Shown here piece by piece: positions 8,198 to 13,991 of a stretch of DNA of 64,000 nt. A program made the position numbers and the translations under genes. A model generated the notes under the pieces. It made no database searches, had not been told where the DNA came from, and worked only from the letters and a program-made list of their open reading frames with translations. Source of the DNA: a virus; IMG/VR virus record IMGVR_UViG_3300037961_006825, positions 1 to 64,000 of that record; one strand, given 5' to 3'. Within the stretch, counting starts at the first letter, position 1; each line of letters begins with the position of its first letter.

Positions 8198-8205
8198 TAT
8201 AAATA
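8198..8205 (+). promoter_or_regulatory. T4-type late promoter for the curli/cyclase operon
   Basis: TATAAATA 5 nt before ATG 8211. Confidence 0.65.
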
Positions 8206-8210
8206 ATTAT

Positions 8211-8492
8211 ATGGAAGGTTTTATTAGATTTATGACCGAAGTTGGGTTTCCGATTGCAGGAGCTCTAGCTGGCGGTGTTTTCATCTTTATAATTTTAAAA
8301 TTTATATTAGAAGGTGTAAAAGGTTCTGTAGCCGGTCTTGGTGGTATGATTGGTAGTTTACAGAATAGAGTAGATGTAATGACAAATGAAATCGTTAAAA
8401 TTGATACATTAATTTCACATGCTTTTAATGTAGAACCAAACTTAGATAGAATAGCTGCTTCCGAAGGTAAAGAAGACGCAAGGAAAGATTAA
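8211..8492 (+). CDS. single-TM coiled-coil protein (GFP motif, YvrJ-like)
   Basis: VGFPIA-TM then coiled coil; paralog of the next gene. Confidence 0.65.
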   Translation: MEGFIRFMTEVGFPIAGALAGGVFIFIILKFILEGVKGSVAGLGGMIGSLQNRVDVMTNEIVKIDTLISHAFNVEPNLDRIAASEGKEDARKD

Positions 8493-8494
8493 AA

Positions 8495-10152: not shown

Positions 10153-10959
10153 ATGAAGAAAATTACATTTATATCAATATTAGCGTTAGTTACCTCGTTA
10201 GCATATGCAAATAACGAGATTTACTTAGAACAGGAAGGTACAACAGGTACTTTTAATATTACTCAAATCGGTTCATCAAATAGAATCGGTCAATCAACTG
10301 ACATTTCAACAATTAAAGGTAATGATAGTATCTTTAATTTATCTCAATTAGGTAATAGTAATGCATTAGACATCAATTGGGATGGTAAAGAAACTACTTT
10401 TGATCTTTATATTGAAGGTGATGGTAATACACAAGACTTAGTAGTTACAGGGGATGGTAATGATTTTGATAATGTTATTTTAGGTAATAATAACTCTTTA
10501 ACAGTTTCAAAAGACCCAACTTCTGACGATGCTTCAAGTATTTCAGATCAAACATTTAATAATTATATTATTGGTGATAGTAACTCTTTAGATTTTTATC
10601 TTGATTCGAATGTTAATGCTGTAGTTGATATTACAATTGCAGGTAGTAGTAATGATTTAACATCAATTCAAGAAGGTGGTAACTTAGGAGTAGGTCATTC
10701 ACAAACACTTGAATTACAAGGTAGTGGTAATACAGTAGAGTTAGTACAAAGTGGTTCAGAATCTCAAACATTAGAATTAACTCACTACGGTCATGACACA
10801 ACATTTACAATTATTCAATCAGATGGAACGTATACAGCTGGTTTAGAAGGTGCTAATGTAATAAGTAATTTTGATGGAAGTTATTCAGCAGTTTATGCAC
10901 AACCTGGTTTCTTACTTGGCTCAGTACCTGAAGCAACAGCCGGTGCTGACGGTAACTAA
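10153..10959 (+). CDS. curlin-like (CsgA/CsgB-type) secreted beta-solenoid protein
   Basis: Sec signal (AYA), repeated QxGxxN/GxxN arcs (QIGSSN, QLGNSN, EGDGN, QGSGN); N/G/S/T/D-rich. Confidence 0.75.
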   Translation: MKKITFISILALVTSLAYANNEIYLEQEGTTGTFNITQIGSSNRIGQSTDISTIKGNDSIFNLSQLGNSNALDINWDGKETTFDLYIEGDGNTQDLVVTGDGNDFDNVILGNNNSLTVSKDPTSDDASSISDQTFNNYIIGDSNSLDFYLDSNVNAVVDITIAGSSNDLTSIQEGGNLGVGHSQTLELQGSGNTVELVQSGSESQTLELTHYGHDTTFTIIQSDGTYTAGLEGANVISNFDGSYSAVYAQPGFLLGSVPEATAGADGN

Positions 10960-11872
10960 ATCTTTAATTTTATTTTTCTTCATTTGTTTAACCTCTTCTG
11001 CTGCTGGTTCAGTTGGAGAGGTTTTCCATCAAACAAGACAAGCTCAAATTACTAGAGGAGCAGATAAAATTTTAACTGAAGTAGGTACTGAAGTTGAAAT
11101 GGGTGATAAAATAGAAACATTAAAAGGTAGTATCACTATAGTATTCGTTGATAAAACTGAGGTAACTATATCAGAATATTCAAAACTTATAATAGATGAA
11201 TTTGTATATGATGCTAATAGTAATAAAGGAAAAATTAATTTAAAAGCAGGTTTAGGTAAATTAAAATATACTTCAGGTATAATGGCTAATAAAGAAAATA
11301 TTAGAATAACGACTCCTACTGCATCAGTTTCTGTTAGAGGTACTGATTTTGAAACTACTGTAAATGAAGCTGGCTCAAGTACTTTTACATTACTACCTTC
11401 AATAGCTGCTGATGGGTCAACGTATGTTGGAGTTATTGAAGTTTTTAATGCAACCGGTGCTGTTGTATTAGATACTGCTTTCGAAGTAACTACTGTATCA
11501 TCATCTTATACACCACCTACTCCTCCAGTAATTAACAGAGCAAGATTAAATGAAGCTATAGAAAAAAGAGATAATCAAAATGAAGAAATAAATGAAACCG
11601 AATCAGTAGATGATGAAGAATTAGATTTAGATAGTGAAAAAGACGCTTTAGATGAATCTTTAATACAGTTAATGGAAGAAGATAATTCAAATGGATTATT
11701 TTATGAAGAAGATGACAAAGCAATATTTGAATCTGTAGATGGAGAGAATAAAGTTAAATTAATAGTAGATAAAGATTCAAATGTCTCACTAAAATATGAT
11801 AATAAAGGAGTTATAACTGAAGGTAATCACAACAGTGGTGGTAACGTAATTATAAATATTATACAACAATGA
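10943..11872 (+). CDS. FecR-domain exported protein
   Basis: GDKIET, FVDKTEV, ITTPTASVSVRGTDF; likely GTG start at 10943 gives a clean signal peptide (track start 10871). Confidence 0.8.
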   Translation: MLTVTKSLILFFFICLTSSAAGSVGEVFHQTRQAQITRGADKILTEVGTEVEMGDKIETLKGSITIVFVDKTEVTISEYSKLIIDEFVYDANSNKGKINLKAGLGKLKYTSGIMANKENIRITTPTASVSVRGTDFETTVNEAGSSTFTLLPSIAADGSTYVGVIEVFNATGAVVLDTAFEVTTVSSSYTPPTPPVINRARLNEAIEKRDNQNEEINETESVDDEELDLDSEKDALDESLIQLMEEDNSNGLFYEEDDKAIFESVDGENKVKLIVDKDSNVSLKYDNKGVITEGNHNSGGNVIINIIQQ

Positions 11873-13911
11873 AGTTAAAAAAACTAAAACCATTTTTATG
11901 GTGTATGTTTATTGCATTAATATTTTCTGCAATAAGAATATACGATCCATACCCGGTAGAAATAATTAGACTTAAAGGTTTAGATTTTTATCAAAGGCAA
12001 CAAGAAGCAAAAATATCTCAAGAAATTAGTATTGTAGAAATAGATGAAGCAAGTTTAGAGCAATATGGTCAGTGGCCTTGGAAAAGAGATATTTTATCTA
12101 ATGGTATAATAAAAGCATTTGAAAATAATGCAGCTTTAGTAGTATTACCAATATTATTTGCTGAAGAAGATAGACTAGGTGGTGATGAATTTTTTATACA
12201 AACAATACAAAATTATCCTGTAGTTACTTCGCAATCAGCTTCATTGAAAGGTAAGGGTAAAGTAGTACCAAGAGGTATATCTACTATTGGTACGGGGTTA
12301 TATAATTGGTTATATGACTATCCAGCAGGTATAGGACCGTTAGATAGTATAGGTAAATATTCAGCAGGGGTAGGTATGCTTTTAACAGCTCCAGAGTTAG
12401 ATGGCGTTGTGAGAAGGCTACCTTTACTTATACAAATTAATGGAGAACCTTACCCTACAATACCTTTAGAAGTTTTACGATTATTCGGAGGTGAACAATC
12501 TTATCAGGTAAAAGTTGATGAAATGGGAATAAATAAAGTTAGAGTATTAGGTGTAAATACTATTGATACTGACCAACATTCTCGAGTTTGGATAAACTTT
12601 AATAATGAATTTAATAAAATATCATTCATAGATAATGATTGGACAAGTTTAGAAAATAAGATTGTTGTAATTGCTTTAACAGCTGAAGGATTATCTAACT
12701 CAGTTGCAACACCAATTAAGGTTAGCAATGGTCATGAATTAAATATGCAGGTTTTACAAATGTTAATTGACGGCAATACTTTAAATAGACCAGTTGACGC
12801 AACTATAAATGAAGTTCTTATAACTTTAGGTATAAGTTTAATTTTAACTTTAGGTGCATTATTTTTATTATATTATATAAATGTATTTTTATTACTTATT
12901 ACAGTAATTTTATTACCTTATACAGGGTTTTACCTCTTTAATAACTATAATTTACTTTACGACTATACATATCCTTTATATTCAACATTTATAATTTTTA
13001 CAATAGCTATTTTCTTTAGATTTATTCATGAATTTAAAGGTAGAATGTTAATAAAAAAACAATTTGAACATTATCTTGCCCCTGAAATAGTTAAAAAACT
13101 TCAAAAGAATCCTGATATGTTAAAATTAGGAGGTGATACACAGGACTTAACTATTTTATTTTCTGATATCAGAGGGTTTACTACTATAAGTGAGCAATTC
13201 AAAGATAATCCACAAGGATTAACTGATTTAATTAATAGATATCTTACACCTATGACTCAAATAGTTATGGAATCAGGCGGTACTATTGACAAGTATATTG
13301 GAGATGCTTTAATGGCGTTTTGGAATGCACCTATACCAGAAGATAAGACGTCACATAGAATAAAAGCTATAGAAGTTGCAATAAAAATGCAATCTGAGTT
13401 GGAAAAACTTAATATACAATTAGTAGAAGAAGGTAAAAAGGAACTTGCAATAGGTATTGGTATTAATACTGGAACAGTTGTGGTAGGTAATATGGGATCT
13501 GATCAAAGATTTGATTATACTTGCTTAGGAGATGCTGTAAATTTATCAGCTAGACTTGAAGGGCAAACTAAATCATATGGCGTGGGTATATTATTAGGTG
13601 AAGAAACTATAAAACATATTGAAGATAAATTTAAATTTATTGAGTTAGATAAAATTGCAGTGAAGGGTAAAAAAGAAGGTAAATATGTATATACAGTTTT
13701 AGATAAATTTAACCATACTTTACATAATGCATTTTTAGAGTACTATAAGAATAGAAAATGGAAACAAGCTTTATTGACAATAGAGAAGATTTTTGATAAA
13801 GGTACACAGCTTGAGTTTTACTATAAAGAAATGGAAAAAAGAGTTGTTGATTTAGCTAAAAATGATCCAGGTGAAGATTGGGATCAAGTATATAGATTAA
13901 AGACAAAATGA
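11869..13911 (+). CDS. CHASE2-domain class III adenylate cyclase
   Basis: CHASE2 motifs IVEIDEASL..GQWPWKR and DGVVRRLPL; 3 TMs; LFSDIRGFT, DKYIGDA, DYTCLGDAVNLSARLE. Confidence 0.93.
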   Translation: MKLKKLKPFLWCMFIALIFSAIRIYDPYPVEIIRLKGLDFYQRQQEAKISQEISIVEIDEASLEQYGQWPWKRDILSNGIIKAFENNAALVVLPILFAEEDRLGGDEFFIQTIQNYPVVTSQSASLKGKGKVVPRGISTIGTGLYNWLYDYPAGIGPLDSIGKYSAGVGMLLTAPELDGVVRRLPLLIQINGEPYPTIPLEVLRLFGGEQSYQVKVDEMGINKVRVLGVNTIDTDQHSRVWINFNNEFNKISFIDNDWTSLENKIVVIALTAEGLSNSVATPIKVSNGHELNMQVLQMLIDGNTLNRPVDATINEVLITLGISLILTLGALFLLYYINVFLLLITVILLPYTGFYLFNNYNLLYDYTYPLYSTFIIFTIAIFFRFIHEFKGRMLIKKQFEHYLAPEIVKKLQKNPDMLKLGGDTQDLTILFSDIRGFTTISEQFKDNPQGLTDLINRYLTPMTQIVMESGGTIDKYIGDALMAFWNAPIPEDKTSHRIKAIEVAIKMQSELEKLNIQLVEEGKKELAIGIGINTGTVVVGNMGSDQRFDYTCLGDAVNLSARLEGQTKSYGVGILLGEETIKHIEDKFKFIELDKIAVKGKKEGKYVYTVLDKFNHTLHNAFLEYYKNRKWKQALLTIEKIFDKGTQLEFYYKEMEKRVVDLAKNDPGEDWDQVYRLKTK

Positions 13912-13991
13912 TGAAGATAGTTTTACTTTTAGGAATTTTTGCATTAAGTTTTATTGTTATTTTTATAAGCGAAAAATCTAATAAAAATTAA
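13908..13991 (+). CDS. 27-aa membrane peptide (not in ORF track)
   Basis: ATGA overlap with the cyclase stop; MMKIVLLLGIFALSFIVIFISEKSNKN. Confidence 0.5.
   Translation: MMKIVLLLGIFALSFIVIFISEKSNKN

Follow-up and report, generated by a model that had tools for sequence, protein, structure and literature searches.

A conserved phage curli-type gene block with a FecR-domain protein and a CHASE2 adenylate cyclase: a candidate envelope sensor

We analysed a block of curli-type secretion genes in virus DNA from IMG/VR record IMGVR_UViG_3300037961_006825. Directly after its genes for CsgF, the outer-membrane channel CsgG and a curlin-like protein come two more, one for a secreted protein with a FecR domain and one for a CHASE2-containing class III adenylate cyclase. 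The reading we favour, to which sequence and analogy lend about an even chance of being right, is that the block could act as an envelope sensor, in which a pore formed by CsgG, CsgF and curlin is combined with a FecR–CHASE2 pair that would convert the state of the cell surface into cyclic AMP (cAMP). The stretch examined (the window) comprises positions 1 to 64,000 of the record, which is 74,204 nt long and estimated to be 34% complete; G+C content of the window is about 30%, and the carrier is an uncultured marine T4-like phage, probably with a genome of about 200 kb. The block (8211–13911) consists of seven open reading frames (ORFs) on the plus strand, separated by gaps of 2–17 nt or overlapping by 4–17 nt, with ATGA overlaps at the junction of the FecR and cyclase genes and at that of the cyclase with a 27-amino acid ORF downstream. 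All ORFs were intact, co-oriented and tightly coupled, as the original prediction had described them.

A block with FecR and cyclase genes has already been described by Wittmers et al. 2022 (PMC9599517), and its csgFG part was described earlier by Zaragoza-Solas et al. 2020 (PMC7029224) and in PMC9004378. The published description assigns iron regulation to FecR and labels as histidine kinases the two small membrane proteins that open the block (PMC9599517). None of the three papers mentions CHASE2, and PMC9599517 does not contain a FecR–CHASE2 relay.

We assessed how consistently the parts of the block occur together in other phages. At least 566 IMG/VR stretches were found to encode a CsgG relative, and counts were taken from the 80 best; the loci include contigs of about 30–50 kb plus others of 150–200 kb. 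A FecR gene lay downstream of csgG at all 56 loci with at least 2.5 kb of downstream sequence, and the cyclase, including its CHASE2 part, was present at every one of the 30 loci whose sequence extends 7 kb or more beyond csgG. Since the 80 loci were chosen as the nearest to the query, these figures of 100% are biased upward. The original prediction had made its proposed relay depend on conservation of FecR and cyclase beside csgFG, and this conservation is what was observed. The two small membrane genes were present in nearly all related loci, sometimes relocated after the cyclase or inverted. The parts of the block are strictly co-inherited and form one conserved unit.

The same gene order was found in HTVC008M (KC465899, 7181–13807), which infects SAR11, and in Melnitz (MZ577097, 50118–56876), which infects OM43, a host of a different class. 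In both, an additional curlin gene separates FecR from the cyclase, and most relatives carry a second curlin gene. The closest relative (L004), a 196,877-nt contig rated 93% complete, shares the minimal layout of the window: it too has a single curlin gene, a FecR gene directly against that of the cyclase, and a short FecR linker. The pelagiphage type VIII secretion system (T8SS) region has the same genes in the same order as the window (two small membrane proteins, CsgF, CsgG, curlin, FecR and cyclase), with CsgG and cyclase 38%–44% identical to those of the window and CsgE missing from both. The window differs in having a single curlin gene (the optional second is missing), in its FecR gene abutting the cyclase gene, in an acidic, L/D-rich FecR linker that, as in L004 alone, has lost about 100 residues, and in its lineage, which appears to be one of larger phages. 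The window copy is a minimal, one-curlin version of the published viral curli block.

FecR–CHASE2 pairs also occur in bacteria, where their genetic context is different. An alignment of the cyclase was searched against one genome per prokaryote species, giving 63 loci; seven were set aside as phage contigs (L084–L087, L092, L093 and L123) and 56 were counted. With a hidden Markov model (HMM) built from viral FecR sequences, a FecR-like ORF was detected within 3 kb of the CHASE2 gene at 27 or more of these 56 loci (a lower bound), and FecR-like matches numbered 33 in 296 kb near CHASE2 genes versus 0 in 516 kb further off. Neither csgG nor csgF was found at any of the 56 loci. Because bacterial FecR–CHASE2 pairs were never beside csgG or csgF, what the phage block does is to join a FecR/CHASE2 sensor to a curli pore, each of them a cellular module.

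Like the window, the bacterial pairs place a gene for an exported FecR-domain protein beside a CHASE2 receptor gene, several of them with a class III cyclase as output. However, the bacterial partners are often outer-membrane proteins of 800–1,200 amino acids or LysM-bearing proteins (several in our survey have about 800 amino acids, with the Pfam FecR domain confirmed in two), whereas the phage FecR protein has 309 amino acids and no barrel. The bacterial clusters lack csgG and csgF and contain, in addition, genes for TPR/Slam-like proteins or a phosphodiesterase, or type I secretion genes. Published examples include the Campylobacterota, where a CHASE2 cyclase shares its cluster with a phosphodiesterase, a TPR protein and an outer-membrane protein that has a FecR domain (PMC9239204), and a FecR protein paired with a CHASE2 kinase in Burkholderiales (the BiofilmReg operon) and Pseudomonas aeruginosa (PMC5192318). 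For the CHASE2 cyclases of Sinorhizobium meliloti (CyaD1, CyaD2 and CyaK), the sensing of an external protein depends on NsrA, a protein of the outer membrane (PMC13001267, PMC7529298). Because of this bacterial precedent, the FecR protein is the most likely partner to be read by the phage CHASE2 domain.

Bacterial CHASE2 cyclases with no FecR neighbour adjoined type I secretion genes (TolC-like OEP, ABC, HlyD) or TPR/Slam-like genes, and other CHASE2 loci, with or without FecR, adjoined TPR genes and genes for Slam/DUF2860-type outer-membrane proteins. These neighbourhoods, noted at the CHASE2 cyclase loci L088, L089 and L103 and at L098 and L137, suggest that CHASE2 receptors are linked more generally to machinery for export at the outer membrane. 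The seven contigs set aside were binned in metagenome-assembled genomes (MAGs) that serve as GTDB species representatives and are labelled Flavobacteriaceae, Bacteroidetes, Legionellales, Pirellulales, Chitinophagaceae and Rhodobacteraceae. Further genes of the phage block are present on most of these contigs, and one (L085) was assigned by the similarity of its cyclase to the query alone. They are probably phage contamination of the bins, and could mislead inference of host or origin.

The phage FecR protein is secreted and has a beta domain of the FecR/PupR type. The gene (10943–11872, plus strand; PF04773, E-value 1.1e-10) likely starts at GTG 10943 and not at TTG 10871, which yields 309 amino acids with the signal peptide MLTVTKSLILFFFICLTSSAAG. 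The signal peptide leads straight into a beta domain, and the protein has no anti-sigma domain, transmembrane (TM) anchor or barrel. An AlphaFold2 model (mean predicted local distance difference test score, pLDDT, 81.8) showed two beta domains, one at residues 23–185 and one C-terminal, with an acidic helical linker between them that was poorly predicted. Residues 52–205 matched the juxtamembrane subdomain of the anti-sigma regulator PupR (6ovk; Z 15.0, root-mean-square deviation (rmsd) 2.5 over 130 residues), and residues 21–115 matched 5ix9 (Z 10.9, rmsd 2.4, 73/76 residues, 20% identity), the periplasmic retention plug of MpIBP/LapA-type RTX adhesins, which tethers the adhesin in its outer-membrane pore. 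The likeness to the LapA/MpIBP retention module is one of modelled fold only and may simply reflect the FecR-type beta fold; unlike those adhesins, it comes without a type I secretion system, LapG or LapD in the phage.

These features bear on the suggestion, made in PMC9599517, that the block serves iron or siderophore uptake, with the pore importing iron chelates and FecR regulating as in FecIRA. The Pfam FecR match and the discussion in that paper are in its favour, and a periplasmic FecR-fold domain is indeed shared with anti-sigma factors of the FecIRA type. However, the cytoplasmic anti-sigma domain and TM anchor of those factors are replaced in the phage protein by a cleavable signal peptide, and the match to PupR is confined to the juxtamembrane beta subdomain. 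Bacterial FecR proteins of this type, moreover, pair with CHASE2 receptors and not only with FecI/FecA (PMC5192318, PMC9239204). No extracytoplasmic function (ECF) sigma factor or TonB-dependent transducer is annotated in the HTVC008M and Melnitz neighbourhoods, although no search was aimed at them. We regard a role in iron uptake as extremely unlikely.

The C-terminal domain of the FecR protein, folded alone, gave a small six-stranded beta-sandwich of 55 residues (pLDDT 89.3) whose best structural matches were generic Ig-like domains (Z ≤ 4.7). In most relatives it is preceded by an acidic linker of about 100 residues with an L/D-repeat pattern (LDxDFLxFDxLE…), which is largely deleted in the window and in L004. 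All 40 aligned FecR sequences end in IxIxQ, with the Gln invariant. We considered whether this C-terminus (…GGNVIINIIQQ in the window, final Q invariant) could be a curlin repeat that docks to the fibre, an idea that was not supported. Curlin HMMs and Pfam Curlin_rpt did not match it, full-profile hhalign of FecR against curlin gave a probability of 2.9%, and a structure search with the folded domain returned no curlin match; when only the C-terminal part was used, hhalign placed it on the last curlin repeat, but with an E-value of just 0.013 and a probability of 3.4%.

The cyclase (11869–13911, plus strand; 680 amino acids) matched CHASE2 (PF05226, 1.3e-37) and a class III catalytic domain (PF00211, Guanylate_cyc, 6e-24). 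Its predicted topology is a TM segment, a periplasmic CHASE2 domain, three TM segments and a cytoplasmic catalytic domain, and the closest solved structure is CyaB of P. aeruginosa (3r5g, 1.8e-36). The catalytic residues named in the original prediction (the metal-binding Asp pair, the Lys, the Thr and the N/R pair) are all present. D433, K475, D479 and R562 were invariant in 34 viral homologues and N558 was found in 29 of the 34, while position 551, the second specificity position, is T in the window and S, T or D in other homologues. Because D433, K475, D479 and R562 are invariant, the enzyme is likely active and is predicted to make cAMP.

The envelope sensor would work in the following way. 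Late in infection the phage would give its host a CsgG/CsgF outer-membrane pore with a curlin-repeat substrate, and would add a two-part envelope sensor borrowed from bacteria. The FecR-fold protein would reside in the periplasm, where the periplasmic CHASE2 domain of the inner-membrane cyclase would read it, and the cytoplasmic domain of the cyclase would make cAMP. The CsgG/CsgF/curlin apparatus would thereby take the place of the outer-membrane barrel of the large bacterial FecR counterparts, and what is converted into cAMP would be the condition of the pore or fibre, or else an encounter at the cell surface. The contacts among FecR, CHASE2 and CsgG, the direction of signalling, the signal and the reader of the cAMP are all things that we infer.

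In a more specific and decidedly unlikely version of this sensor, the phage FecR protein would be a tether, its FecR/plug-like N-terminal domain staying in the periplasm and touching CHASE2 while the linker and C-terminal sandwich engage or traverse the CsgG/CsgF pore and curlin. The assembly would then be a split, phage-encoded equivalent of an NsrA-type FecR-barrel receptor, and contact or superinfection would be turned into cAMP that is read by a receptor of no known family. If this were true, an infected cell could signal through cAMP that its surface had been touched or that another phage was superinfecting it.

Several observations weigh against the envelope sensor, in addition to the bias of the phage counts given above. 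The cyclase is less often present in podophage versions of the block (PMC9599517). About half of the bacterial CHASE2 loci have no detectable FecR neighbour, and the closest true bacterial cyclases (34% identity) adjoin type I secretion genes. Further, no canonical domain that binds cyclic nucleotide monophosphates (cNMP; PF00027) was found in the 74-kb record or in five related records, two of which are at least 90% complete.

The result with PF00027 is also what speaks for host takeover, in which the cyclase would raise cAMP to reprogram host metabolism and its linkage to curli genes would reflect shared late, envelope-directed expression instead of a chain of signalling: with no cAMP receptor found in the phage, the target must be the host's. 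The intact catalytic domain fits this explanation too, as do the stand-alone class III cyclases in other phage records, such as Acinetobacter phage MD-2021a. However, a cyclase used in this way would not explain why the large periplasmic CHASE2 domain is kept in all 30 cyclase homologues, why the adjacent FecR partner is always kept, as in bacterial sensor pairs, or why the parts are strictly co-inherited across phage families. We consider host takeover unlikely.

The secretion genes of the block are those of a recognisable curli apparatus. CsgF (8818–9291, plus strand) has a signal peptide and matched PF10614 (2.5e-15; 57.2 bits versus a cut-off of 25.8) and phrog_35372 (1.2e-33), with no direct phmmer match to solved CsgF structures. 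CsgG (9281–10135, plus strand; PF03783, 1.3e-46) is an outer-membrane lipoprotein channel with the lipobox IAGC. It aligned with Escherichia coli CsgG (PDB 3x2r, 1.1e-39) from the lipobox Cys onward, including the constriction Phe, with two constriction residues changed (Tyr to Thr and Asn to Ser). The curlin-like gene (10153–10959, plus strand) encodes a secreted curlin-repeat protein of 268 amino acids and is present in a single copy. Its three Curlin_rpt matches (9.9–13.9 bits) were all below the Pfam cut-off of 20.7. In an alignment with 38 viral homologues, the Q/G/N repeat positions were invariant, and the family profile matched the solved curlin-repeat protein 8c50 (3.7e-8) and CsgA (8enq, 1.2e-4), which upholds the assignment made in the original prediction. 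The absence of CsgE, also claimed there, agrees with a search of the 74-kb record (34% complete), in which PF10627 had no match at E ≤ 0.1, and CsgE is likewise absent from the viral T8SS region in the literature (PMC9599517). The block thus has the CsgG channel, CsgF and a Q/G/N-repeat substrate in common with the E. coli curli system (csgBAC-csgDEFG), and differs from it in lacking CsgE, in a curlin below the Pfam cut-off and in its extra sensor genes. CsgC and CsgD did not appear in it either, although no search was aimed at them.

With CsgF, CsgG and a curlin-repeat substrate all present and conserved, the block could instead be a device for fibre export, a function proposed in PMC7029224 and PMC9599517. 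Curlin-like fibres on the infected cells would aggregate them ("sibling capture") or shield them from superinfection, while FecR and the cyclase would only tune expression or secretion, for example through feedback on periplasmic load, without sensing the exterior. The second curlin gene of most relatives is in keeping with this proposal. However, no clumping was seen in Melnitz-infected cultures (PMC9004378), the proposal leaves a complete sensor cyclase at 30 of 30 loci unexplained, and no known cAMP-responsive regulator of the phage was found in the six records searched with PF00027. We regard fibre export as the main purpose of the block as possible, though doubtful.

Two paralogous single-pass membrane proteins precede csgF, each with an N-terminal TM segment and both matching phrog_18771: protein 1 (8211–8492, plus strand; 93 amino acids; 5.7e-26), which has no Pfam match, and protein 2 (8495–8812, plus strand; 105 amino acids; 7.5e-28), in which a charged helical tail follows the TM segment. 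Matches to protein 2 in the Atlas were confined to viral clusters without a known function; among named clusters, the nearest were YvrJ and Holin_BhlA, with scores of only 0.84–0.86. The label "HK" (histidine kinase) given to these proteins in the literature was not supported, as no kinase signal was found in Pfam, PHROGs or the Atlas.

The original prediction had further taken lysis timing as the output of the block, on account of adjacent holin/spanin-like genes. A related proposal in the literature makes the CsgG/F pore a gated secretin or pinholin (Buchholz et al.; PMC9004378); alternatively, cAMP might feed the neighbouring genes. Two membrane-protein genes do lie convergent to the block (13988–14839, minus strand), and the nearest named Atlas cluster of the small TM protein is a BhlA-type holin, at a score of only 0.84. 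It speaks against lysis timing that an outer-membrane pore such as CsgG cannot depolarise the inner membrane. The convergent genes had no Pfam or PHROG family and no holin or spanin assignment from either, and they had no homologues beside the block in the 80 related loci; in HTVC008M and Melnitz, tail/baseplate genes stand downstream of the block in their place. Since these genes are not conserved, the inference of lysis timing rests on an accidental neighbourhood and was not supported. We judge a lysis-timing function very unlikely. The genes at 13988–14839 may be a lysis cassette that, by conservation, is unrelated to the curli block, and a frame that overlaps them (14353–14883) contains the lipobox-like motif LLLSGC.

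The hydrophobic 27-amino acid ORF that overlaps the cyclase stop codon (13908–13991, plus strand) is a doubtful gene and not a conserved part of the block. It had no tblastn match in the 80 related loci, and of 37 relatives only 2 have any hydrophobic mini-ORF after the cyclase. The ORF reported in the original prediction therefore exists, but its membership of the block did not hold.

We also evaluated the late promoters that had been proposed for the block. The T4-type late box TATAAATA was found 23 times in the window versus 26 expected in shuffled sequence, so it is no more frequent than by chance. Its placement before start codons, however, is non-random: for 12 of the 23 boxes, the ATG of an ORF (40 amino acids or longer) follows after 5–10 nt, against a background of 2% (p = 7e-15). 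One box (8198–8205, plus strand) is 5 nt upstream of the ATG of the first block gene. Two more are internal: one at 10140–10147 (plus strand), 5 nt upstream of the curlin-like ATG, and one at 11851–11858 (plus strand), within the end of the FecR gene and 10 nt upstream of the cyclase ATG. In relatives, a box recurs in 16 of 55 near the start of the first small membrane gene and in 25 of 66 near csgF, while none was found near the curlin start in 61 relatives or at the cyclase gene in relatives; the internal pair (10140 and 11851) is particular to this phage. Because box placement is non-random and the box recurs in relatives, late expression of the curli block is plausible. Boxes nearly touching start codons occur, for example, at 8198, 10140, 14865 and 54761 on the plus strand and at 54254 and 58349 on the minus strand; if T4-like spacing to the start site applies, these would imply leaderless or near-leaderless late mRNAs.

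Upstream of the block, a strong terminator-like hairpin (7729–7758) closes the preceding unit. Between them, a gene for a DUF3307 membrane protein (7761–8141, minus strand; phrog_6676) is divergent from the curli block; it has the same position in L004 (63% identity) but not at most other loci. Translations judged by eye indicate that the flanks (4565–6848 and 15846–16469) contain QueE-like, two SpeD-like, spermidine synthase-like and Fe/Mn superoxide dismutase-like ORFs.

Phages of SAR11 and OM43, which are abundant in the ocean, carry the block, and it has been reported at 65 of 65 global virome stations (PMC9599517). As the window copy shows, the block can do without a second curlin gene and without a long FecR linker. 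Reading the FecR protein and the cyclase as a sensor pair would correct two labels used in the literature, "iron regulator" and "histidine kinase", and a CHASE2 sensor pair placed on a secretion pore would offer a testable model of virus-encoded signalling from the envelope to the cytoplasm.

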